From Megasphaera elsdenii DSM 20460 (GTDB lineage: Bacteria; Bacillota; Negativicutes; Veillonellales; Megasphaeraceae): 32,000 nt of DNA. The stretch lies in assembly GCF_003010495.1 (NCBI RefSeq), contig NZ_CP027570.1, positions 1,230,001 through 1,262,000 on the forward strand, read 5' to 3'. The position numbers were made by a program, and so were the translations under genes. This document shows positions 4,145-32,000 of the stretch, piece by piece; position 1 is the stretch's first letter; each line of letters begins with the position of its first letter. The notes beneath the pieces were generated by a model. It was given only the letters and a program-made list of their open reading frames with translations. It did not search any database and was not told the DNA's origin.

Positions 4145-5086
4145 TTGTTCATGGAAATGTTATCGGCCATAGCGCCTTTCTTCATGGCTGGCCTGCTGGG
4201 GACGGTGTTCGCCCGTTTTACGGGCATCAATATGAGCATGTGCGTCCTCCTCATGTTTTTGTACATGGGGGCCAAGCCCGTCGAATGTATTGCCGCTATG
4301 TTGATGTTTAATGTATTCACCTATTTTACGGTGTATTCTCAGCTTCACGTCATGAAGATCAAGAGTTTCACCTTTTTCCCTGGCGTGCGCCTGGCCATCC
4401 CGATTTTGATCACCATTGCCCTGGCTGCGCTCAATCCTTTCATCGGCATCGTCTTTTTCGTCTTCACGTTCCTCATGGAAATCTTCGCCAAGATTTATAA
4501 GGAAATGGATGCCAAGTCGCGTCCGACGAAGGGGAAAATCGGTCAGATGGTCGTCCTCGCCGCTGTCCTGGTGACGATTGGCACGGCTCTCGTCCAGTTC
4601 ATCCCGGAAAATTATTATTACATCGTCGGCGGCGTGACTATTTTGATTTACGCCTTCTTCATGTGGCGGACGGGAGACCGCCGCAAGGGAACGGCCTGGT
4701 GGGATAAGCTGCTCTATGCATCGACGTTCCTCACCGGTCTGAGCGGCATCGACGGGACGGACTGGCTCACGGCGATGCGCCGTAATCCCGAATCGGTCTT
4801 GTCTAAATGCTATCCCATCGTCATCAACGGGGCCATGATCATCGCCCTGCTGGCATCGTATGCTATGTATCAGTATTTCTCGCTGGGTGCCTTGTTTGCT
4901 ACCATCGGTTCGGCCGTCGGCATCCGCCTGTTTGGCTTATATGAACATAAAGAAAAGGGAAGCTTTTCTTACCTCACCTTGGGCATTGCCGTCCTAGCAG
5001 CCCTGGTGTTCATGATCATCCAGCCCGTACCGACAGGATTCCCTGTCGTGCCCATGGCAGATAATGCCGGATTTTTCGATTTTTAG
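4145..5086 (+). CDS. Polytopic integral membrane protein of unknown function
   Basis: There are about 8-9 hydrophobic segments and no motif I recognise. The start is TTG 4145 or ATG 4151, after AGGAG at 4135-4139. It lies 18 nt after pyrE and so is probably co-transcribed. Confidence 0.6.
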   Translation: MFMEMLSAIAPFFMAGLLGTVFARFTGINMSMCVLLMFLYMGAKPVECIAAMLMFNVFTYFTVYSQLHVMKIKSFTFFPGVRLAIPILITIALAALNPFIGIVFFVFTFLMEIFAKIYKEMDAKSRPTKGKIGQMVVLAAVLVTIGTALVQFIPENYYYIVGGVTILIYAFFMWRTGDRRKGTAWWDKLLYASTFLTGLSGIDGTDWLTAMRRNPESVLSKCYPIVINGAMIIALLASYAMYQYFSLGALFATIGSAVGIRLFGLYEHKEKGSFSYLTLGIAVLAALVFMIIQPVPTGFPVVPMADNAGFFDF

Positions 5087-5093
5087 TTTTGCA

Positions 5094-5128
5094 AAAAAGC
5101 GCTGTCTTTTATGGCAGCGCTTTTTTTT
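5094..5128 (+). terminator. Rho-independent terminator (GCGCTG...CAGCGC stem plus a T8 run)
   Basis: The sequence is AAAAAAGCGCTGTCTTTTATGGCAGCGCTTTTTTTT. It belongs to the recurring terminator family seen after carB, argD and the SGNH gene. Confidence 0.85.
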
Positions 5129-5130
5129 GC

Positions 5131-5185
5131 AAGGCTCCCTTTATAGGGGAGCTGGCCGCCGGAGGCGGTCTGAGAGGTTGTTTTT
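5131..5185 (+). repeat. Conserved double-hairpin element, copy A
   Basis: AAGGCTCCCTTTATAGGGGAGCTG-GCCGCC-GGA-GGCGGT-CTGAGAGGTTGTTTTT. It is homologous to the minus-strand copy at 24211-24155, with compensatory changes in the second stem. Confidence 0.6.
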
Positions 5186-5277
5186 AAATATTTGCAGGAA
5201 AACGGCGGGCTTTGTCGAATATATTATATATGCCTTATTTATGACTCAATTTTATTTTATATAAAGGGGGGATCCCT

Positions 5278-5775
5278 ATGAAGAAAAGTATTATCTTAGC
5301 GATGGTCGTAGCGGCTTTGGCTTGCGGGCCGGCCTGGGCTTATGATGAAGGACCGGTCATGGGGCCGTATTCGGCGATTCCCGGATTGACGGCGGTGCAG
5401 CAATGCCAATTGACGGTGGCCGGCAAGGTCATGGACCCGGCAGAGGGGGCTGTTTTACAGGAAAATAATGTGGTCATGATTCCCTTGCGGAAAGTGGCGG
5501 AACAGCTCGGTTATACCGTGACCTGGGATCCTGACGATCAGAGCGTTCGCGTAGAAATGAACATTGCCTATATCATCGTCAAGCCCGGTGAAGACTGGTA
5601 TGAACGGATCGGGACGATCAAGAAGGTCAACTTGAACCACATCTTCCAGTACGGTGCCGGCCCGGTCAATGTCAACGGTACGATGTACGTCCCGGCCCAG
5701 CTCTTTGAAGCCTTTTACAACAGCGTCACCATTACGCCCCAGGCCGTGACCATTACGCCGGCATCGACAGACTGA
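5278..5775 (+). CDS. Secreted protein with a copper-amine-oxidase-N-terminal-like (stalk) domain
   Basis: A signal peptide is present (MKKSIILAMVVAALACGPAWA). The segment VMIPLRKVAEQLGYTVTWDPDDQSVRV is typical of that domain family, from memory. The RBS is GGGGGGA. Confidence 0.65.
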   Translation: MKKSIILAMVVAALACGPAWAYDEGPVMGPYSAIPGLTAVQQCQLTVAGKVMDPAEGAVLQENNVVMIPLRKVAEQLGYTVTWDPDDQSVRVEMNIAYIIVKPGEDWYERIGTIKKVNLNHIFQYGAGPVNVNGTMYVPAQLFEAFYNSVTITPQAVTITPASTD

Positions 5776-5792
5776 AGTCGTGAAAAAACTGC

Positions 5793-5821
5793 TTGACTTT
5801 ATGGGCCTTGGTCGATACAAT
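5793..5821 (+). promoter_or_regulatory. Promoter of the pyrB operon
   Basis: TTGACT at 5793-5798, a 17-nt spacer, and TACAAT at 5816-5821. Confidence 0.6.
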
Positions 5822-5835
5822 ATATAGAAGAATAT

Positions 5836-5968
5836 GTGGCAGTCCCGTGAGGCTGTGCGATTCTAATACTTTCAGATTGTACCTTTAATGTAGTCCGGAG
5901 AGGCTAAAAAGGGACATATTTTGCCATGCTTATAATATGACCTTTGCCCTGCGGCAGAGGTCTTTTTT
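5836..5968 (+). promoter_or_regulatory. PyrR-type transcription attenuator (binding loop, antiterminator, terminator)
   Basis: CCTTTAATGTAGTCCGGAGAGGCTAAAAAGG (5882-5912) matches the PyrR binding-loop core GUCCAGAGAGGCU. A second GTCCCGTGAGGCT lies at 5841-5853. The antiterminator AAAGGGACATATT / AATATGACCTTT overlaps both alternative structures. The terminator GACCTTTGCC-CTGC-GGCAGAGGTC plus T6 lies at 5939-5968. Confidence 0.75.
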
Positions 5969-5982
5969 ACAAGGAGGATTCG

Positions 5983-6927
5983 ATGGTTAGTATACAGGGC
6001 AAAAGCCTGTTGGGGCTCCAGGGAGTACCGAAGGAAGAAATTGAATTGATACTGCGGGTCGCTAAGAAGATGAAGGCCGTCGTCAACAGCGGGAATAAGA
6101 AGTTATCCCTGCTCAAAGGGAAATCGGTGGTCAACATGTTCTGGGAACCGAGTACGCGTACGCGCGGTTCCTTTGAAATGGCTGCCAAGTATCTCGGCGC
6201 TGATGTCATCAACTTTACGCCGCGGGGAAGCTCCATCCAGAAAGGTGAAAGTTTCCGCGATACCCTGCTGACGGTAACCGCTATGGGTGTCGATGCCATC
6301 GTCATGCGTCAGAAACAGGAAGGTTCGCCGTGGTTTGCTGACCGCTGTGTCGACCCGATTATCATTAACGCCGGTGACGGCGCGCACGAACATCCGACGC
6401 AGGGCCTCCTCGACATGTTCACCATTAAGGAAGTCAAAGGTCACATCGACGGCTTGAAAGTTGTCATCGTCGGCGATATCGACCACGGCCGCGTCGCCCG
6501 CTCCAATATCTATGGTCTCAAGACCATGGGTGCCGACGTCCACCTCGTCGGTCCGCGGACTCTGCTCCAGCCGGAATTGGAAGCTATGGGTGTCAAAGTC
6601 CATTACGACTTGAAGGAAGCCATCCAGGATGCAGACGTCATCAACGTCTTGCGTATCCAGAAAGAACGTCAGGGTATCGGCTTCTTCCCCAGTGCCGGTG
6701 AATACAATTCGCTCTTCGGTATCAACCGCGACCGCCTCAAGTGGGCTAAAGACGACGTCCTCGTCCTTCATCCGGGTCCCATGAACCGGGGCATCGAAAT
6801 CGAACCGGATACATGTTACAGTGAATTTTCTTCGATTCAGGAACAGGTCAAGAACGGCGTATCCGTCCGTATGGCCGTATTATATCTGACAATTATGGGA
6901 GGCGATGACGTTGACACTACTCGTTAA
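5983..6927 (+). CDS. pyrB: Aspartate carbamoyltransferase catalytic subunit
   Basis: Motifs STRTR, HPTQ and HPGP are present. ATG 5983 follows AAGGAGG at 5971-5977. The ORF-track start at 5944 lies inside the terminator hairpin, so I rejected it. Confidence 0.93.
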   Translation: MVSIQGKSLLGLQGVPKEEIELILRVAKKMKAVVNSGNKKLSLLKGKSVVNMFWEPSTRTRGSFEMAAKYLGADVINFTPRGSSIQKGESFRDTLLTVTAMGVDAIVMRQKQEGSPWFADRCVDPIIINAGDGAHEHPTQGLLDMFTIKEVKGHIDGLKVVIVGDIDHGRVARSNIYGLKTMGADVHLVGPRTLLQPELEAMGVKVHYDLKEAIQDADVINVLRIQKERQGIGFFPSAGEYNSLFGINRDRLKWAKDDVLVLHPGPMNRGIEIEPDTCYSEFSSIQEQVKNGVSVRMAVLYLTIMGGDDVDTTR

Positions 6928-24309: not shown

Positions 24310-25140
24310 TTAGAAGCTCGGCAGGATAGCACCCTGGTATTTGTCTTCGATGAATTTCTTGATTTCCGGAGACTGGAGGGCTTTGACGAGTTTCTGGATT
24401 TCCGGACGGTTTTCATCACCTTCGCGGATGACGAGGACGTTGGCATACGGCGAATCCTTCGGTTCCAGGAAGAGCGCGTCTTTCAGCGGATTGAGACCGG
24501 CTTCCATAGCAAAGTTGGTATTGATCAAGGCGATGTCTACGTCATCGATGGAACGGGGAATCTGAGCGGCTTCGAGTTCGACGAACTGGAGGTGTTTATC
24601 GTTCTTTTCGACGTCCTGTACGGTCGACGTGATGTTACCGCCATCTTTCAAGCCGATGAGGCCGGCACTCTGCAAGATGAGGAGGGCGCGGCCGCCGTTG
24701 GTCGGGTCATTGGGGATGGCGACTTTGGCGCCGTCAGCGACGTCTTTCAAGTCCTTGACTTTATGGGAATAAATGCCCATTGGTTCGACGTGGATCTTAG
24801 CGATGGCTTTCAATTTTGTGCCGTGTTCGCTATTGAATTTGTCGAGGTACGGTGAATGCTGGAAGAAGTTGGCGTCGATTTCCTTATCGTTCAGGGCCAG
24901 GTTCGGTTTGACATAGTCCGTGAATTCGACGACTTTCAGGTCGACCCCTTCTTTGGCCAGGAGCGGTTTGACTTCATTCAGGATTTCACCGTGCGGTACG
25001 GGCGTGGCGCCGACGGTGACTGTCGTGTTCTTGGAAGACGAGCCGCTGGAAGCGGAATCACTGCCGCAGCCGGCAGCCAGGACGGCGATGGCCAGCAGGG
25101 CTGAAGCGGCGAGAATGGAAAGTTTCTTGAGATTTTTCAT
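24310..25140 (-). CDS. metQ: MetQ/NlpA-family methionine-binding lipoprotein
   Basis: The lipobox LAAGCGS is present, with family-wide similarity to the paralog at 26971-27804 (IPNDPTNGGRAL, EAAQIPRS). The RBS is AGGAGG. Confidence 0.88.
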   Translation of the reverse strand: MKNLKKLSILAASALLAIAVLAAGCGSDSASSGSSSKNTTVTVGATPVPHGEILNEVKPLLAKEGVDLKVVEFTDYVKPNLALNDKEIDANFFQHSPYLDKFNSEHGTKLKAIAKIHVEPMGIYSHKVKDLKDVADGAKVAIPNDPTNGGRALLILQSAGLIGLKDGGNITSTVQDVEKNDKHLQFVELEAAQIPRSIDDVDIALINTNFAMEAGLNPLKDALFLEPKDSPYANVLVIREGDENRPEIQKLVKALQSPEIKKFIEDKYQGAILPSF

Positions 25141-25169: not shown

Positions 25170-25400
25170 CTTTTCTGTTCCGTCATTATCCTTGAACCTC
25201 TCCCGCTTATAGAAGCGGGAGATTCTTGAGAAATTTGATACATGGACTAACGCCTGACAGCCTATTCCAAAGGAGTTAGCTGTCAGGATATCCTTATTCT
25301 CAAAGGGCTGTCCAAAAGCCCCTTACACAGTCCCTCGAAATCGAAGTTCTGCTTACTTTTACGGAGTATGTTGTATGCTCCATTCACATCCGCGTTGGCC
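25170..25400 (-). ncRNA. Putative omega/reRNA of TnpB (3' end of tnpB plus RE); not demonstrated
   Basis: This is by analogy with characterised TnpB systems. Hairpins lie at 25253-25287 (CCTGACAGC...GCTGTCAGG, spanning the stop codon) and at 25199-25222. Confidence 0.3.
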
Positions 25401-26700
25401 ATCCTGCCATCGGCGAACTGGTACAAGCCACGGTGGATACGCTTCCCACTGAACGTGCCAGTATACGGCTGTTCAGGATTATAGACAGGAATATCGTCTA
25501 AATCCAAGCAACTTGCTTGAGAAGTGTAAGATTCTTCCTGTTCGATATATCGCATACCGTAACGCTCGCAAAGTCCTTCCAGTGTTTCACGCAGATTACC
25601 GAAACTGATTTGCGTAAACTGCTGGTTGGTTATCCTACCCAGGTCGATACTACGTTTAAAGTCACCGTTATAACCACAGACGATGGTTCCGATACGGTGT
25701 TCGATACAGTAGTTGATGATATAGCGGGCAACCTTGCGGAGGTAGTCCTGTGTCCGATTATTACGTTTTCTTGCTAAGGCATAGAGCCTGTGCGTTTTCT
25801 TCTGTCCTTGTTTGTCGGCAATCCCCTGATAGTAGGCTTTCTGCTTGTTCCAATACTGGTTGATTGATTTAAGTTTACGCCCGTCCATGATGAACGCCGT
25901 CCCGGTGTTGGTCACGCAAGTTGCCAGATTTTCAAGACCGATGTCGATAGCAAGGACATTGTCCGGTGAAACGTCTTGAGGTTCTTTCTCCTGAAGATAG
26001 TAATACTGGATTTTGAAGTATCTGCCATTATATATGGGACAGATACGGACTTCCTTGATGGTTTTCTCTTTCAGTCTTGCAGGGAAAGGGATTTTGATTG
26101 GCTTACGGCCATGCCGTTTAGAAAATCCCCGACTCATGGGGATCGTCAAGAATCCATCTTTTACGTTTATGGCGTTCGTGGAGAGAATCAGGTTGAACAT
26201 GCCGCCTTTTTCCCGATAGTGAGGCATTTTGATGTCCTTGAAGCGATATTCTCCTGATTTTGCCTTTTTTATGAGATTGAAGAATGACTTGAAACTGCGG
26301 TCAGCCACCTTCAATATCTGCTGAGACACGCCAGCCTGCAACAGACCGTAGTTTTCGTTTTCCTTGCAGACATGGTAATTTTCTTCGTATTTCAAGAACT
26401 TCTTCTCTTGGAAATAGTATTGCCTGATGTTGTAGAGAGCCACGTTGTAGAGGTTGTTGCTGTATTGGCACATCTCCCGCAGCATGGCATATTCTTCTTT
26501 GGAAAGATTTCTGATGACATTTGATTGAGTAAGATACACATTTTTCACCTCCTTTTTTATTATATGATTATTATGTGGGAAATAGTGATGATTTTTAAGA
26601 TGAGTTACAGCGTTTTTGTGCTTTTTACGGGCCTTGGACCCACTCAAGCACCGCCATTCATCCCCCACCTAAGAGGTGGGAGTCTTCTGGCGGGAAAAGA
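25192..26700 (-). mobile_element. IS200/IS605-family TnpB-only (IS1341-like) element; ends are approximate
   Basis: tnpB is flanked by related CTCCC-type subterminal hairpins: the LE side at 26662-26682 and the RE side at 25199-25222. There is no tnpA. GC content is lower than in the flanks. TTCAA lies just outside the RE hairpin. Confidence 0.75.
25283..26539 (-). CDS. tnpB: TnpB (IS605 OrfB) RNA-guided endonuclease family protein
   Basis: The RuvC-like residues are in LAIDIGLEN, EESYTSQ and NADVNGAYNI. The GTG start at 26539 lies 8 nt after AGGAGG. The longer ORF-track start at 26668 has no RBS and runs into the LE hairpin. Confidence 0.88.
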   Translation of the reverse strand: MYLTQSNVIRNLSKEEYAMLREMCQYSNNLYNVALYNIRQYYFQEKKFLKYEENYHVCKENENYGLLQAGVSQQILKVADRSFKSFFNLIKKAKSGEYRFKDIKMPHYREKGGMFNLILSTNAINVKDGFLTIPMSRGFSKRHGRKPIKIPFPARLKEKTIKEVRICPIYNGRYFKIQYYYLQEKEPQDVSPDNVLAIDIGLENLATCVTNTGTAFIMDGRKLKSINQYWNKQKAYYQGIADKQGQKKTHRLYALARKRNNRTQDYLRKVARYIINYCIEHRIGTIVCGYNGDFKRSIDLGRITNQQFTQISFGNLRETLEGLCERYGMRYIEQEESYTSQASCLDLDDIPVYNPEQPYTGTFSGKRIHRGLYQFADGRMANADVNGAYNILRKSKQNFDFEGLCKGLLDSPLRIRIS

Positions 26701-26970: not shown

Positions 26971-27804
26971 ATGATTCAATGGAAAAAGAAATTTTTACCG
27001 CTTGCCTTATTAGCCGTATTGGCTGTCGGCCTTGCCGGTTGCGGCGGTCAGGGGGATAATGGCCAGAGTGCCGGCAGCAGCGACAAGGAAATCAAGATCG
27101 GAGCCACAGCGGGTCCTCATGCTGAAGTCGTCGAAGCCGTGGCTAAGGAAGCAGAAAAACAGGGGATTCACATCAAAGTCGTCGAATTTTCCGACTACAT
27201 TACGCCGGACAAGGCCCTGGCTGATGGAGATATTGACTTGGTCAGCTACCAGCATAAGCCATTCCTGGATAATTTCAATAAGCAGAATGGTACGGATTTA
27301 GTACCTATTGGCAACACGATCCTCATGCGCATGGGGATTTACAGCGATAAATATAAGAGTGTCGACGCTTTGCCCGACGGAGCTGTCATTGCTATCCCCA
27401 ATGACCCGACTAACGGCGGCCGCGGCTTGGCGCTCCTTCAGCGCGCAGGGCTGCTGAAACTTAAAGAGGGCGTAGGATTCAAGGCTACGCCGGCTGATGT
27501 CGTCGATAATCCCAAGCATTTCCAGTTCAAAGAAATCGAAGCGGCCCAGCTGCCGCGCAGCCTCGGTGACGTCGATGCGGCTGTCATTACTATGAACTAC
27601 GTCATGAGCGCCGGCCTTAACGTCAAGGAACAGGGCATCTTCTTGGAACCGAAAGACGAACCGCTGGCCGTCATGGTCCTGGCTGTCCGAGCTCAAGATA
27701 AGGATAATCCGACATACAAGAAGATTGCTGAAATCTTCCATTCCGATGGCGTCAAGAAATTCATTGCCGACAAGTACAACGGTACGATTGAACCGGCTGA
27801 ATAA
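26971..27804 (+). CDS. metQ: MetQ/NlpA-family lipoprotein, second paralog
   Basis: The lipobox LAGCGG is present, along with IPNDPTNGGRGL and EAAQLPRS. The RBS is GAGGGGGA. Confidence 0.88.
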   Translation: MIQWKKKFLPLALLAVLAVGLAGCGGQGDNGQSAGSSDKEIKIGATAGPHAEVVEAVAKEAEKQGIHIKVVEFSDYITPDKALADGDIDLVSYQHKPFLDNFNKQNGTDLVPIGNTILMRMGIYSDKYKSVDALPDGAVIAIPNDPTNGGRGLALLQRAGLLKLKEGVGFKATPADVVDNPKHFQFKEIEAAQLPRSLGDVDAAVITMNYVMSAGLNVKEQGIFLEPKDEPLAVMVLAVRAQDKDNPTYKKIAEIFHSDGVKKFIADKYNGTIEPAE

Positions 27805-27816
27805 GCGGTGTAAGGC

Positions 27817-27846
27817 TTGACAATGAGCGCCTGACAAGTATATAAT
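27817..27846 (+). promoter_or_regulatory. Promoter of the T-box operon
   Basis: TTGACA at 27817-27822, an 18-nt spacer, TATAAT at 27841-27846. Confidence 0.6.
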
Positions 27847-27852
27847 AAAGCA

Positions 27853-28136
27853 AAATCTAAATGGATTTGTCGATGAACGAAACGAGTATATCTGATGTGG
27901 CAGTTCCAGCGAGCCGATGGCAGTGGGAGTTCGGCACGGACCGGCGGATAGAATGGATTCGGGAGATGCGGCCTGAACGGTGACCAGTAGGGTGCGACGG
28001 TGTATTTCCACCGCTATCAAAGAAACGTGTATCGCTATGGGCCGTACATGTAGAGCTGGACTCACTGAGTCAATCTGGGTGGCACCGCGGAAGAAATCGA
28101 ACCTTTCGTCCCTGTATAGGGACGGAAGGTTTTTTG
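27853..28136 (+). promoter_or_regulatory. T-box riboswitch, predicted Trp (UGG) specifier
   Basis: The Stem I base is CGATGAACGAAACGAGTA. TATCTG (27889-27894) pairs with CGGATA (27945-27950) and is followed by GAA-TGG-A (TGG at 27954-27956). The T-box sequence AATCTGGGTGGCACCGCG lies at 28072-28089. The terminator ACCTTTCGTCCCT/AGGGACGGAAGGT plus a T-run lies at 28099-28136. Confidence 0.85.
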
Positions 28137-28164
28137 TTGTCTTCAGACAGAAGGGGAGAGAAAG

Positions 28165-28980
28165 ATGCTGGAAATGAAAGATGTCAGTTTCAACTACGGC
28201 AACGGCGTACCCGTATTGGAACACATAAATGTAAAAATCGGTGAGGGCGAATTTATCGGCCTCGGCGGCCGCAACGGCTGCGGCAAGACGACGGTGACGC
28301 GCCTGCTCATGGGATTGGAAAAGCCCGTATCCGGGGAGATTCTCTATGACGGAAAGGTCATCAACAACGACGATGCGTCGGTACGCAGCCATTTCATAGG
28401 CTACGTCTTCCAGCGGCCAGAACGGCAGATGTTCCGGCCGACGGTCCGCGAAGAAGTGGCCTACGGGCCGCAGCAGCTGGGCATGAGCCGCGATGAAATC
28501 CGCCAGGCCGTCGACGAAGCCTTAGCTGCGACGGAACTGACGGAACTTTCGGAAGCTTATCCGCCTAACTTGAACCGCGGGGAAAAGCAGCGCGTCGCCA
28601 TCGCTTCGGCCATCGCCATGCATACGAAATACATCGTCCTCGACGAACCGACGAGCGGCCAGGATAGTGAAGACAAGGACCAGCTCATGGCCTTGCTGAC
28701 GGACCTCAATAAAAAGGGGATGACTATCCTCATCATCAGCCATGATATGGATATCTTCGCCGAATACTGCCAGCGCGTCCTGGTCATCGGCAATCATACG
28801 AAAGCCTTTGATGGGACGCCGCAGGAATTGTTCACGCAGCGCGACGATTTATATGACCTGGGATTGAGTCGGCCCGACGCCGTTACCTTGTCCCTGGCAA
28901 TCCCGGATTTTCCTTACTGTAAGTCGATGAAAGAATTCACAGCAGCCATGCTGGAACGGATGGGAGGTACCCGCAAATGA
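28165..28980 (+). CDS. ECF-transporter ATPase (EcfA-type) with a degenerate signature motif
   Basis: Walker A is GRNGCGKTT, Walker B is IVLDEPTSGQD, and the H-loop is ISHDM. The signature reads LNRGEKQR instead of LSGGQKQR. Confidence 0.85.
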   Translation: MLEMKDVSFNYGNGVPVLEHINVKIGEGEFIGLGGRNGCGKTTVTRLLMGLEKPVSGEILYDGKVINNDDASVRSHFIGYVFQRPERQMFRPTVREEVAYGPQQLGMSRDEIRQAVDEALAATELTELSEAYPPNLNRGEKQRVAIASAIAMHTKYIVLDEPTSGQDSEDKDQLMALLTDLNKKGMTILIISHDMDIFAEYCQRVLVIGNHTKAFDGTPQELFTQRDDLYDLGLSRPDAVTLSLAIPDFPYCKSMKEFTAAMLERMGGTRK

Positions 28981-29663
28981 TGAAGAACCTGGTTCCTGTT
29001 ACAAAATTGATTGGCACCTTTGCCTTTTCTTTCTGGGCCCTGGTCATGCATACGACCTTGCCCTTAGTGATTTTAGTCGTTATCGAACTCATTCTCTTAG
29101 GCTTATGCGGCAGCTTGGCGCGCAATATCAAGGCCGTCTTCAGCCTGGCCGTCTTTGCCGTTTTCCTGGCTGTCGTCCAGCTCCTGGGCGGCGGATCGTT
29201 AGAATCGGCTTATGTGACGGGCCTGCGCATGCTGGCCATGACGATTGTCTTCATCATCTTGTTGACGACGACGCGCCTGCAGGATTTGACGGCGGCCCTG
29301 GTAAAGCAGATCAAGATTCCTTATGAATATGCCTTCATGTTCACGGCGGCTTTGCGCTTCGTGCCGGATTTCATCGCTGAAAGCAAGGCCGTCCAGGAAG
29401 CTCAGGCCTGCCGGGGGTTGTCGACGAAGGGCAATGTCTTTAAGAAAGTCATCAATTATATGAGCGTCGTCCAGCCGCTGATGCTCAAATCGTTAGGCCG
29501 GTCGGAAACGATGGCCCTCAGCCTGGAACTGCGCGGCTTCGGCAGCAATGAACACAGCTTCATGAGCAATGTCCGTCCGAAAGGCCGGGATTATGTGGGC
29601 ATCGTCATCATGCTGGCTTTGAGCTGCTTTGTCGTCTACTTGCGCTTGCAAGGTTTGGTTTAG
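28977..29663 (+). CDS. ECF-transporter transmembrane T component (EcfT/CbiQ family)
   Basis: It is polytopic, with the C-terminal coupling-helix-type motif ALSLELRGFG. There is an ATGA overlap with the preceding ATPase gene. Confidence 0.8.
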   Translation: MMKNLVPVTKLIGTFAFSFWALVMHTTLPLVILVVIELILLGLCGSLARNIKAVFSLAVFAVFLAVVQLLGGGSLESAYVTGLRMLAMTIVFIILLTTTRLQDLTAALVKQIKIPYEYAFMFTAALRFVPDFIAESKAVQEAQACRGLSTKGNVFKKVINYMSVVQPLMLKSLGRSETMALSLELRGFGSNEHSFMSNVRPKGRDYVGIVIMLALSCFVVYLRLQGLV

Positions 29664-29675
29664 GAGGGGAACACG

Positions 29676-31151
29676 ATGAAAACTGTGGCAGATATTTCCA
29701 AATTAGAATTCCATCATCGCCAAGGCGGCCAGTTCCGCTGGATTACCATTACGACGCTCATGTTGGCCATCGGTACGATTTTACACCTCGTCTCGCCGAG
29801 CGTCGGTGGCGTTACACCGAACTGGACCATCGCCACTTATTGCGTTGCCATTTGTCTGACCAAGCCGAGCTACAAGCAGGCGCTGGGCATCGGCTTAGTC
29901 GCCGCTTTAGTCAACGTCCTGACCTCGAAGTCGGGCTTCCCTTACGGCAACCTCATCAGTGAACCCCTCGGCGCCCTGACTTGTACGTTCATCGTCAAGA
30001 ACCTGGCCTTCATCAAGTTCAAAGGCCATTCGTGCCTGCCCGTCCTGACCGGTTTTGCAGCGACCTGCATGAGCGGCGGCGCTTTCGTCACGATACTGAA
30101 GTTCGTCATGAATTTGCCGACGGTCGTCTATGTTACGGCCATGCTGCCCCTGGTCGTCGTCATCGGTGCCTTGAATGCCGTTGTCACACCGCTCATGTAT
30201 TTCCCGGCCCTGCGCCTCTTCGTTTCCCGGGGCATCCTCGATTCCCTGGAAGAACAGGAAGTCACGTCGGACCACAGCATGTATGATTTGAAGCCGACCC
30301 AGGATGGCCTCATTTCCATGGAACATTTGTCGTACATCTATAATAAGCAGAAGACACCCGTCCTGGATGATGTCACCATGACCGTAAATAAAGGTGACTT
30401 CCTGGTCATTACCGGTGAAAGCGGCAGCGGCAAGAGCTCCCTGTGCATGGCCATGACCGGTGCCATCCCGCATTATTTCGGCGGCGTCATGAAAGGGATG
30501 GTCTATGTCGACGGCCAGGCGACGACACAGACGACCATTTCCCAGTTGGCGACCCGCGTCGGCGCCATGCTCGATGACTACGACAGCCAGCTTGTTGCCA
30601 TGACCGTCGAAGAAGAAATCGCCTTCAGCCTGGAAAACCAAGGCGTTGCACCGGATAAAATAGGCCAGGCCATTACGGAAGCCCTGGAAAAGGTCAACAT
30701 GACGCCGTACCGCCACCGCCAGGTCACCAAACTGTCCGGCGGTCAGCGCCAGCGTCTGGTCATCGCCGACGTCCTGGCGACTAATCCGGATATCCTCGTC
30801 TTCGACGAACCGACGTCGGCCCTGGACCCGGAAGGAACCCATGAATTCTATGAATTGATTCACGATTTGAACGTCAAATACGGCCATACCATCGTCGTCA
30901 TCGAACATACGCTGGAAGCGGCCCTGCCCTATGCCAACCGGCTGGTCCTCATCGACCACGGCCACATCCTCAGCGATGCCGATGTGGAAACGACGCTGCG
31001 CTATATGTATGACCATAATATTTGTACCAGTGCCATCCCGAAAATCTTCGCCTGCCAGATGGACCTGGAAAAAGCCGGCTGCCATTTCGATGCCCCGTGG
31101 CTGTCGACGGACGTTGCCGTAGCGGCTGTCCAGAAAGCCGTCCAGCCGTGA
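29676..31151 (+). CDS. Fusion protein: six-TM S-component-like domain (TrpP-like by inference) plus an EcfA-type ATPase
   Basis: Residues 1 to about 195 form six hydrophobic helices. Residues from about 210 to 491 form an ABC ATPase, with GESGSGKSS, LSGGQRQR, ILVFDEPTSALD and IEHTL. The RBS is GGAGGGGA. Confidence 0.8.
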   Translation: MKTVADISKLEFHHRQGGQFRWITITTLMLAIGTILHLVSPSVGGVTPNWTIATYCVAICLTKPSYKQALGIGLVAALVNVLTSKSGFPYGNLISEPLGALTCTFIVKNLAFIKFKGHSCLPVLTGFAATCMSGGAFVTILKFVMNLPTVVYVTAMLPLVVVIGALNAVVTPLMYFPALRLFVSRGILDSLEEQEVTSDHSMYDLKPTQDGLISMEHLSYIYNKQKTPVLDDVTMTVNKGDFLVITGESGSGKSSLCMAMTGAIPHYFGGVMKGMVYVDGQATTQTTISQLATRVGAMLDDYDSQLVAMTVEEEIAFSLENQGVAPDKIGQAITEALEKVNMTPYRHRQVTKLSGGQRQRLVIADVLATNPDILVFDEPTSALDPEGTHEFYELIHDLNVKYGHTIVVIEHTLEAALPYANRLVLIDHGHILSDADVETTLRYMYDHNICTSAIPKIFACQMDLEKAGCHFDAPWLSTDVAVAAVQKAVQP

Positions 31152-31717
31152 AACTCCTATGCTTGGGCGATAGTCTGACGTATGGTTTTGCCGTCCAGCC
31201 TGACCAAAGCTGGACGGCCCTGGTCTCGGCTAAAAGTCTGATTCATATCGACAACGAAGGTCAATGCGGCGATACGACGACGGGCATGGTCTATCGCCTC
31301 CATCAGTTCGACCTCAGCCGGTATGACGCCTTCTTCGTCATGGGCGGATCCAACGACATTCTCCTCGACGGGGACTTGGAGAATATCTGCCGGAATATAC
31401 GGAATATCGTCACGACGTTCAAGGCCCAGGGAAAACCAGTATATCTGGGCATCCCGCCGCTGACTACGATGGAGAGTGCCATGTACGGTTGGCAGAACGC
31501 CAGAGACGTAGAAAAACACAATGACCAACTGCGTCAGTATCGGCAATGGCTCCTTTCGTATGGCAAAGAAACGGGCTGTCATATCATCGACTTCTATGAA
31601 GCCCTGTTCAATGCCAAACGGCGGACTGGCCGTAACCTCTACGCCGACGGCGTCCATCCCAATGCCGAAGGCTACGCCGTCTTGGCCCGGGAAGTACTGA
31701 AAGTGATGGGGGGTTAG
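31148..31717 (+). CDS. SGNH/GDSL-family hydrolase
   Basis: The N-terminus is KLLCLGDSLTYG (block I Ser), followed by GGSND and DGVHPN (block V). The GTG start overlaps the upstream stop (GTGA). Confidence 0.8.
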   Translation: MKLLCLGDSLTYGFAVQPDQSWTALVSAKSLIHIDNEGQCGDTTTGMVYRLHQFDLSRYDAFFVMGGSNDILLDGDLENICRNIRNIVTTFKAQGKPVYLGIPPLTTMESAMYGWQNARDVEKHNDQLRQYRQWLLSYGKETGCHIIDFYEALFNAKRRTGRNLYADGVHPNAEGYAVLAREVLKVMGG

Positions 31718-31752
31718 TGGCTCGTGATTCGTGGTTCGTAGCTCGTAGGGGC
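31718..31752. repeat. Heptad array directly after the stop codon
   Basis: GTGGCTC GTGATTC GTGGTTC GTAGCTC GTAGGGG. Confidence 0.7.
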
Positions 31753-31781
31753 CGCCCAAAGGGCGGCCCGCCTGATTCACT

Positions 31782-31814
31782 AAAAAAGCACTGTCTTTAT
31801 GACAGTGCTTTTTA
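31782..31814 (+). terminator. Rho-independent terminator (same family as the carB and argD terminators)
   Basis: AAAAAAGCACTGTC-TTTAT-GACAGTGC followed by TTTTT. Confidence 0.88.
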
Positions 31815-31821
31815 TGAACTA

Positions 31822-31945
31822 TAGGGGCGCGCATGTGGCGCTCCTACAATGTGGGCTACGAACCACCAGCCACTAGCCACTAGCCACTAGCCACTGATTT
31901 ACGGGATTCCCACAACGGGCCGCCCTTTGGGACGGCCCCTACAGT
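31822..31945. repeat. REP hairpins and a perfect AGCCACT x4 microsatellite
   Basis: AGGGGCGCGCATGTGGCGCTCCT lies at 31822-31844. AGCCACT x4 lies at 31868-31895, in inverted orientation relative to the 31718-31752 array. GGGCCGCCCTTTGGGACGGCCCCTAC lies at 31917-31942. Confidence 0.75.
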
Positions 31946-32000
31946 GACATCACAGATGTCGTTAATGCCCGGCTGTAGGCTGGACAGTGGCCTTTGCATC

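Follow-up and report, generated by a model that had tools for sequence, protein, structure and literature searches.

A tryptophan T-box operon of Megasphaera elsdenii encoding a predicted ECF-type importer with its S-component fused to an ATPase

The subject of this report is a three-gene operon, preceded by a T-box leader, in a 32,000-nucleotide stretch of the Megasphaera elsdenii DSM 20460 genome (contig NZ_CP027570.1, positions 1,230,001 to 1,262,000 of the forward strand; this whole stretch is called the window and position 1 is its first letter). The operon is predicted to encode an energy-coupling factor (ECF) transporter, that is an ATP-binding cassette (ABC) importer made of a substrate-binding S-component, two ATPases (EcfA1 and EcfA2, or A1 and A2) and a scaffold T component, and in the window S and A1 are parts of one protein (S.A1). 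A known counterpart of the S-domain is TrpP (YhaG) of Bacillus subtilis, the founding member of Pfam family PF17099; its gene is solitary and is regulated by TRAP and not by a T-box, and the protein would use the shared group II EcfAA'T module. The two proteins are alike in belonging to PF17099 and in being six-helix membrane proteins of the S-component type, whereas the window S-domain is fused to its own ATPase and encoded in a dedicated T-box operon. B. subtilis TrpP has been treated as a candidate ECF S-component (PMC11487621). Group I (dedicated) ECF transporters such as BioMNY and CbiMNQO resemble the window in that S, T and A are encoded together for one substrate, but they have a homodimeric A and a non-covalently bound S, whereas the window has two distinct A components, one of them covalently joined to S. 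Gene fusions within ECF modules are also known, A-A fusions of the YkoD type being familiar in the literature (PMC3971661), but A-A and A.A.T fusions join parts that stay together throughout the transport cycle whereas an S-A fusion tethers the subunit that the models have moving or leaving. In these models the S-component topples, and in group II systems it is expelled from the motor on ATP binding, while S-components of dedicated systems have been suggested not to separate far from the module (PMC10368641). A natural S-A1 tether would be a ready-made test case for the extent to which S and motor separate in dedicated systems. The regulatory RNA has counterparts in other T-boxes with a Trp specifier, for example the B. 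subtilis rtpA/anti-TRAP leader, which responds to uncharged tRNA-Trp (PMC10327191); the RNA family and the logic of the UGG specifier are the same, but the regulated gene encodes a regulatory protein there and a transporter here.

An earlier note, made from the letters of this stretch, had proposed that a tryptophan T-box controls a dedicated ECF transporter whose S-component is fused to an ATPase. The analysis reported here confirmed what that note had observed and supports its interpretation. The locus probably encodes an ABC importer of the ECF type that is dedicated (group I-like) to tryptophan and is switched on by the charging status of tRNA-Trp. Its function and regulation are of a known kind, and the S.A1 fusion is a genuine and under-appreciated variant. 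The genes lie in the order given in the earlier note (EcfA, EcfT, then a protein of 491 residues), and the parts of the operon that encode protein are as follows.

29676..31151, plus strand: fusion gene, 491 amino acids (aa), TrpP and ABC_tran domains, with a GGAGG ribosome-binding site at 29663-29667
29676..30230, plus strand: S-component domain of the TrpP family, residues 1-185, six transmembrane helices (Pfam TrpP, AlphaFold2 model and fold comparison)
30231..30311, plus strand: linker, residues 186-212, with an SDHS motif (residues 198-201, nucleotides 30267-30278), predicted local distance difference test (pLDDT) score 51-63
30312..31151, plus strand: EcfA1 ATPase domain, residues 213-491, and stop codon (ABC_tran; best NCBIfam match TIGR04520, ECF_ATPase_1)
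28165..28980, plus strand: ecfA2, free ECF ATPase, 271 aa (Pfam ABC_tran; best NCBIfam match TIGR04521, ECF_ATPase_2)
28977..29663, plus strand: ecfT, T (scaffold) component, 228 aa (Pfam CbiQ PF02361, 74.1 bits against a cutoff of 25)

The N-terminal part of the fusion protein was assigned by family and by fold. The Pfam TrpP model PF17099 matches residues 22-175 with 33.2 bits (cutoff 27.2) over model positions 4-161 of 169, and orthologs and distant fusions likewise score above the cutoff; no NCBIfam model matches this domain. The AlphaFold2 (AF2) model has a mean pLDDT of 83 over the full length and of 86.8 for residues 1-196, the latter with a predicted template-modelling score (pTM) of 0.80, and places helices at residues 21-39, 50-62, 66-83, 91-109, 121-145 and 149-184. 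As a sequence-profile search of the domain against the sequences of the Protein Data Bank (PDB) found no solved relative, the link to S-components of known structure was made by fold comparison only, and in this connection it should be noted that S-component sequences diverge widely (PMC11109136). When the isolated domain model was compared with the PDB by Foldseek the best eight matches were all ECF S-components (template-modelling score, TM, 0.5-0.6; probability 0.94-1.0), namely Thermotoga maritima RibU, BioY and the S chains of 4HZU and 4HUQ, followed by YkoE and ThiT, and no match other than S-components had a TM above 0.35. The suggestion of the earlier note that the membrane domain is an ECF S-component resembling TrpP was thus upheld, and the domain did not turn out to belong to a family outside ECF transporters. 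The fold result bears directly on a different reading of the protein, in which the N-terminal domain is the transmembrane domain (TMD) of a conventional half-transporter joined to its nucleotide-binding domain (NBD) and the CbiQ and ATPase genes belong to a separate system. Six-helix TMD-NBD fusions are indeed typical of bacterial ABC exporters, and with the full-length model Foldseek gave alignments of about 450 columns to exporters, but these alignments have root-mean-square deviations of 17-21 Å with only the NBD fitting, and the isolated domain reaches a TM above 0.5 with S-components only. The domain is also shorter, at about 185 residues compared with about 300 for the membrane domains of the matched exporters (chains of 565-590 residues), the ATPase has the C-terminal domain of the ECF type with CbiO and EcfA as its best matches, the unfused orthologs described below are the first genes of S-A-A-T operons, and the genes here are translationally coupled in a single T-box operon. 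A half-transporter is therefore a highly improbable account of this protein.

The remainder of the protein is, as had been proposed, a complete ABC ATPase. Pfam ABC_tran covers residues 230-381, and the best structural matches are CbiO, including that of CbiMQO, and EcfA/EcfA' of solved ECF complexes (TM 0.81-0.89 over about 290 residues). All catalytic motifs are intact: Walker A at residues 247-254, the signature LSGGQ at 353-357 and Walker B with its catalytic Glu at 373-378, together with the Q-loop, D-loop and H-loop. Between the two domains the AF2 model has a low-confidence linker of 28 residues (185-212), the ATPase starting at residue 213. The linker is conserved across the fusions of the Megasphaera group with the pattern …RG.LD…SDHS.Y.L.P…; SDHS is also present in Veillonella montpellierensis and the corresponding motif in Dialister is SNHS. 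An internal start at M215, from which a free A1 would be made, was considered and rejected as a conserved feature as orthologs have I, V or L at this position.

The earlier note had asked whether a sequencing frameshift around 30230-30300 might have created the fusion. As judged from the genomes compared, the fusion is real, not an assembly artefact, and is conserved across an order. More than 100 protein clusters of 488-498 aa with 62-97% identity contain both domains, and in a scan of one genome per GTDB species a continuous match from residue 1 or 7 to residue 487 was obtained in 80 species of Megasphaera, Anaeroglobus, Colibacter and Veillonella, the complete chromosomes among them including those of Veillonella parvula, Megasphaera hexanoica and Megasphaera sueciensis. 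Dialister invisus also has a fused protein (P0349, WP_330072064.1, named ‘tryptophan transporter’ by NCBI). The 491-aa protein is 98% identical to its counterpart in M. elsdenii MSK.21.52, the surrounding DNA being 93-95% identical. A number of the proteins in the databases are only about 190-340 aa long (78-99% identical), and one locus, in a V. montpellierensis-like metagenome-assembled genome (MAG; L003), is called as two genes, as would be expected if the fusion arose by an assembly or sequencing frameshift or by read-through of two separate genes. However, many of the short entries come from contigs of no more than about 1-2 kb and would fit genes cut off where the contig ends, and the split at L003 is due to one in-frame TGA in a contig with a coverage of 4.8x. 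With the open reading frame (ORF) unbroken in 80 independently assembled species genomes and the SDHS linker conserved, the chance that the fusion is an artefact can be put at practically nil, and no error at the junction was found. At L003 the TGA (2916-2918) stands in place of an Arg codon where the linker starts, and it leaves a 187-aa TrpP and a downstream ATPase ORF. Apart from this codon the gene and its fused V. montpellierensis counterpart (L040) are 96% identical, and an identical 187-aa protein was found in a second sample. The split may have arisen naturally, as a secondary separation of the two domains, or may be an error due to the low coverage of 4.8x; the interpretation of the locus as an ‘ancestral unfused’ operon was rejected, as it is a fused gene with one in-frame TGA.

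The unfused relatives are found elsewhere. In two other Negativicutes, Pelosinus sp. IPA-1 (L001) and a MAG (locus L087), the gene order is trpP-ecfA1-ecfA2-ecfT, with trpP first, and the stand-alone TrpP proteins of 189-198 aa are 53-55% identical to the window S-domain. These operons are like that of the window in having four orthologous modules (identities to the Pelosinus orthologs are 55% for S, 46% for A1, 46.5% for A2 and 50% for T) in a dedicated, group I-like arrangement, but S and A1 are separate genes whereas in the window a linker of 28 residues joins them into a single polypeptide and the order is permuted to A2-T-S.A1. By BLASTP the fused ATPase is 46% identical to the product of the first Pelosinus ecfA and 32% identical to that of the second, whereas the free ATPase is 46.5% identical to the second and 30% to the first. 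Together with the best NCBIfam matches of the two ATPases this indicates that it was the adjacent S and A1 genes that were fused. The unfused genes already lie very close, ecfA1 in Pelosinus starting on the final base of the trpP stop and the two genes at L087 overlapping by 29 nucleotides (nt). The TrpP tail at L087 ends in …VSDHSSKL, like the fusion linker, so that an unfused TrpP (P0135, L087 4570-4597) already has SDHS in its C-terminal tail. The linker may therefore have evolved from a cytoplasmic tail that was there before the fusion, and it may have a function and not be a passive spacer. Upstream of the unfused genes a complete T-box is present in Pelosinus, its specifier reading GAA-UGG and its bulge UGGC, and the T-box core motif is present at L087.

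Three layouts of the fused operon were distinguished. The order S.A1-A2-T is that of Veillonella and uncultured Veillonellaceae (47 loci, including the in-frame-stop variant L003), S.A1-A2-T-S.A1 is that of M. sueciensis and Megasphaera paucivorans, and A2-T-S.A1 is that of other Megasphaera, Colibacter, Anaeroglobus and the window. With Pelosinus as the root, a neighbour-joining tree shows the fusions as monophyletic, and in it the upstream copy of the two-copy species is sister to all copies in the downstream position. We infer that a single S-A1 fusion event probably took place at the base of the Veillonellales. The A2-T-S.A1 order appears best explained by a duplication of the fusion gene to the end of the operon in the Megasphaera group, after which most species would have lost the copy upstream; this history would account for the gene order in the window. 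In M. sueciensis (L031, CP116939.1, 2998-7470) the two fusion genes, encoding proteins of 498 and 489 aa that are 65% identical, flank one ecfA2-ecfT pair behind one Trp T-box, which suggests that two S.A1 units share one A2-T half-module and that the two paralogs possibly differ in substrate specificity. Two-fusion operons were also seen at L029 (M. paucivorans), L005 and L006. The statement in the earlier note that the fusion would rule out sharing of S-components was for this reason too strong, as in M. sueciensis and M. paucivorans two S.A1 genes flank a single ecfA2-ecfT, and the two S.A1 units presumably take turns on that one A2-T pair.

Within the operon of the window the start of ecfT overlaps the stop of ecfA2 (ATGA) and the three genes are translationally coupled. 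One promoter and one T-box precede the S, A and T genes, which are co-encoded in 80 species, and by this co-encoding of S, A and T the predicted system belongs with group I (dedicated module). A metQ-like lipoprotein gene upstream lies outside the T-box transcription unit. EcfT scored 45 bits with the NCBIfam CbiQ equivalog model (cutoff 112 bits), indicating that it is not of the cobalt-specific subtype, and the ATPases scored 215 bits with TIGR04520 (cutoff 315; fused) and 218 bits with TIGR04521 (cutoff 330; free). The signature of EcfA2 is degenerate, with LNRGE (residues 136-140, nt 28570-28584) in place of LSGGQ. In a survey of free A2 signatures LNRGE was found in 30 ORFs and LRRGE in 48 (for example in a Veillonellaceae MAG), whereas the unfused Pelosinus A2 has the less degenerate LSKGQ; in the fused A1 the LSGGQ signature is kept in 86 ORFs. 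The degeneracy of the A2 signature seems further advanced in the lineages with the fusion.

The leader, in which the earlier note had recognized a T-box with the specifier sequence GAA-UGG-A at 27951-27957, contains the following features.

27817..27846, plus strand: sigma-70-type promoter (TTGACA, 18-nt spacer, TATAAT; 12 of 12 consensus positions)
27864..28116, plus strand: T-box leader, RF00230 (87.7 bits, E-value 6.9e-20, model positions 1-219 matched end to end)
27870..27966 (approximate limits), plus strand: Stem I, with GA/K-turn region, specifier loop and distal loop (covariance model alignment and RNAalifold consensus)
27954..27956, plus strand: specifier codon UGG (Trp) within GAA-UGG-A 27951-27957, invariant and with covarying helices on either side
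28077..28089, plus strand: T-box core GGGUGGCACCGCG, with the UGGC bulge at 28080-28083 (acceptor-end pairing) and the variable base, C, at 28083
28099..28132, plus strand: intrinsic terminator stem-loop with a 15-bp stem and GUAU loop, the U-tract extending to 28138

The promoter is the sole perfect sigma-70 site within 27700-32000, and its first base coincides with the start of the stretch singled out in the earlier note. A scan of the whole window with the Rfam gathering thresholds gave only a SAM riboswitch and missed the T-box because its score lies under the 93-bit cutoff, and it was recovered by a local Rfam search that used the E-value in place of the gathering threshold; the orthologous leaders at L001, L003 and L006 have scores of 98.6-113.2 bits. 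The window leader thus falls only marginally short, and membership of the family is decided by other features. In the covariance model alignment GAA-UGG-A forms the 3' side of the specifier loop and is followed directly by the lower Stem I helix. The single-sequence minimum free energy (MFE) fold of Stem I is non-canonical and no better than that of shuffled sequences (z = +1.1), and as it did not give Stem I the register was tested by comparison across 22 distinct leaders of orthologous operons, the sources being Megasphaera, Anaeroglobus, uncultured Veillonellaceae, a MAG resembling V. montpellierensis, and Pelosinus. For this set the canonical Stem I was obtained with RNAalifold, with compensatory double changes in 19 of the 22 pairs. 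Standard pairing was found in 96.9% of cells compared with 25-40% when partners were slid by 1-3 columns, the number of pairs with double changes fell from 19 to 3-6 on sliding, and the observed values were reached by none of 500 shuffles. The single-sequence fold is thus uninformative and is superseded by the comparative one. As GAAUGG is invariant in all 22 leaders and is flanked by two covarying helices, the specifier is UGG, the tryptophan codon, and no other codon was placed in the specifier position.

At the 3' end of the leader the terminator fold has z = -3.6, a value matched by none of 200 shuffles, and UUCGUCCC is common to the terminator 5' arm and the antiterminator 3' strand, so that terminator and antiterminator are mutually exclusive in the standard T-box arrangement. 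The variable bulge base was read as C at 28083, in agreement with the earlier note, which had expected it to pair with a G73 discriminator of tRNA-Trp. C is found in the window and in 26 other related motif matches and U in 13 (Megasphaera massiliensis, M. hexanoica, Megasphaera hominis, Megasphaera cerevisiae, Megasphaera micronuciformis and Anaeroglobus), so that both bases occur within one genus, all T-box motif matches in the related loci adjoining the operon. This alternation would be compatible with a G73 discriminator (G-C or G.U) and shows that the variable position is not strictly Watson-Crick constrained among these relatives. The positions equivalent to 28083 are at L013-L016, L021, L023, L024, L026, L027, L032, L034, L036 and L050. 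No tRNA-Trp gene was found in the 32,000-nt window or in 40 related loci scanned. There is nothing unusual in the leader RNA itself. If it were a decayed or non-regulatory remnant the operon would be constitutive from its strong promoter, as might be thought from the score below the Rfam gathering threshold, from the lack of a canonical single-sequence Stem I and from the complete loss of the leader in the V. parvula group. Yet the conserved T-box elements are all intact, a strong terminator overlaps the antiterminator, and the compensatory changes in Stem I across species indicate purifying selection on the structure, so a remnant is highly improbable and a functional Trp T-box is the reading followed below. 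In the V. parvula-group loci (L042-L086) no T-box was found by the motif search and none in the Rfam E-value scan of L048, whereas V. montpellierensis and two uncultured Veillonellaceae retain it. Within 5063-5992 of the V. parvula f34 locus (L048) a ParE-toxin-like ORF (5529-5849) lies just upstream of the fusion operon.

Several observations weigh against the assignment of the operon as a tryptophan-responsive tryptophan importer and should be set beside it. Tryptophan as substrate is deduced from the UGG specifier of the T-box and the name of the TrpP family, and the B. subtilis protein reportedly was linked to tryptophan uptake by Sarsero and colleagues in 2000 on indirect evidence. The RF00230 score is about 5 bits short of the gathering threshold, and the absence of the T-box from the V. 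parvula group means that Trp-responsive control is not universal in the family. The NCBIfam scores lie below the equivalog cutoffs for ECF ATPases and CbiQ, the Foldseek E-values of the S-domain are weak (0.1-0.4), and the full-length AF2 model has a pTM of 0.63 so that the arrangement of its domains is uncertain. The ATP site formed from the Walker A of A1 and the signature of A2 may be non-canonical, and the neighbour-joining tree is without support values.

It is also conceivable that the operon is a T-box(Trp)-controlled ECF importer as described but with a cargo other than free L-tryptophan, for instance a precursor or relative by which the charging of tRNA-Trp is restored (indole, anthranilate, a compound that contains Trp, or an analogue of Trp). 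A T-box reports tRNA charging only and not cargo, and the retention by M. sueciensis and M. paucivorans of two 65%-identical S.A1 paralogs per operon is a hint of two specificities. On the other hand the S-domain falls in Pfam TrpP, whose founding member has been linked to Trp uptake, UGG is strictly kept as specifier in all orthologs examined, and Trp is the simplest cargo for a Trp-starvation regulon. A different cargo thus seems unlikely, and tryptophan is taken as the probable substrate in what follows.

The operon would then work as follows. Transcription would start at the strong, constitutive-looking promoter and by default stop at the leader terminator. As uncharged tRNA-Trp builds up, the anticodon of this tRNA would pair with the UGG specifier and its free NCCA end with the UGGC bulge, and this pairing would stabilize the antiterminator and allow RNA polymerase to enter ecfA2-ecfT-trpP::ecfA1. 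The products would assemble as a 1:1:1 complex of EcfA2, EcfT and the fusion protein, in which the TrpP domain would bind Trp on the outside and topple against the coupling helices of EcfT while the attached EcfA1 domain would dimerize with EcfA2, with ATP being bound and hydrolysed. The linker of about 28 residues, which could span up to roughly 90 Å when fully extended, would let the S-domain undock and re-orient but not diffuse away. A tethered S-domain of this kind fits the suggestion, mentioned above, of limited S separation in dedicated systems (PMC10368641). Rather more tentatively, and with the odds as we see them against it, all of these features may belong together in a natural ‘tethered’ ECF transporter in which S never leaves the motor, the SDHS linker is functional, S plus A1 is, in the species with two fusion genes, an exchangeable unit on a shared A2-T and the motor is asymmetric. 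If so, the substrate-binding subunit could complete its cycle of capture and toppling without leaving the motor, the joint docking of S and A1 on A2-T would be a mode of modularity undescribed for ECF transporters, and the ATP site built on the fused A1 would be non-canonical as a result of the change of LSKGQ in A2 to LNRGE or LRRGE. Controls are at hand in the unfused Pelosinus orthologs and the natural nonsense-split variant, and the two-paralog operons hint at exchange of S.A1 units. The order across which the fusion is conserved comprises abundant commensals of humans and animals (Veillonella, Dialister, Megasphaera).

Other S-ATPase fusions were sought by an exhaustive HMMER search of 1.84 billion representative proteins, of which the best 150 matches were followed by Pfam scans and name look-ups. 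Among these were further TrpP.A proteins (P0202, 505 aa and 39% identical, and P0208), TrpP-like.A.A proteins of 674-790 aa, one of them from a euryarchaeotal MAG (MCL2459772.1), QueT.A.A proteins of 804-938 aa from Nitrospira (e.g. WP_312644268.1), a RibU-like.A.A protein of 820 aa from Carnimonas (WP_435639420.1), an ECF_trnsprt.A.A protein of 794 aa and an A.A.T fusion (P0244). S-A fusions make up at least 15 representative clusters among the best 150 matches, indicating that covalent S-A linkage arose repeatedly, and S.A or S.A.A fusions recur in at least four S families. The S.A.A proteins are like that of the window in having an N-terminal S-domain followed by covalently joined ECF-type ATPase domains, but they have both ATPases in one chain (670-940 aa), come from different S families or lineages and are of independent origin, whereas the Veillonellales have S.A with a separate A2. 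The architecture is therefore not unique and is already in the databases, where it is loosely and inconsistently named (‘tryptophan transporter’, ‘ECF ABC transporter ATP-binding protein’ or ‘cobalt import ATP-binding protein’), so that the result matters for annotation. The earlier note had been aware of no described covalent S-EcfA fusion, and this stands as far as the literature goes, since a full-text search found no published description of, or experiment on, any S-A fusion, although an earlier mention in Rodionov et al. (2009) or Eitinger et al. (2011) is possible; it does not stand for the databases, which already hold such proteins and S.A.A fusions besides. Reviews mention only NBD-NBD and TMD-NBD fusions, in general terms (PMC3971661).

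Some features of the neighbouring DNA may be recorded. Downstream, an SGNH/GDSL-family hydrolase gene (31148-31717) has a probable GTG start at 31148 overlapping the fusion stop (GTGA), and as there is no terminator between the two genes, transcription of the Trp operon in this strain probably takes in the hydrolase gene as well. The gene is not a conserved member of the operon, as the similarity of the DNA to M. hexanoica and M. cerevisiae stops short of it. Directly upstream of the T-box promoter lies the second of two metQ-like (NlpA lipoprotein) genes (26971-27804, plus strand), which is present in M. elsdenii MSK.21.52 and largely missing at this position in genomes of the M. massiliensis group; in M. 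sueciensis its place is taken by a brnQ-type branched-chain amino-acid transporter gene. The first metQ-like lipoprotein gene (24310-25140, minus strand) is preceded by an S-adenosylmethionine (SAM) riboswitch (RF00162, 79.7 bits, 26839-26746, minus strand) that would control it, and a 1.5-kb element of the IS605 family (25192-26699) lies exactly between the two. The element carries a tnpB ORF (25283-26668, minus strand) with OrfB_IS605 and Cas12f1-like TNB domains, as in TnpB, and is absent from four related Megasphaera genomes in which the flanks are contiguous. The SAM riboswitch now reads into tnpB, and this may have disrupted the regulation of metQ or may have placed tnpB under SAM control.

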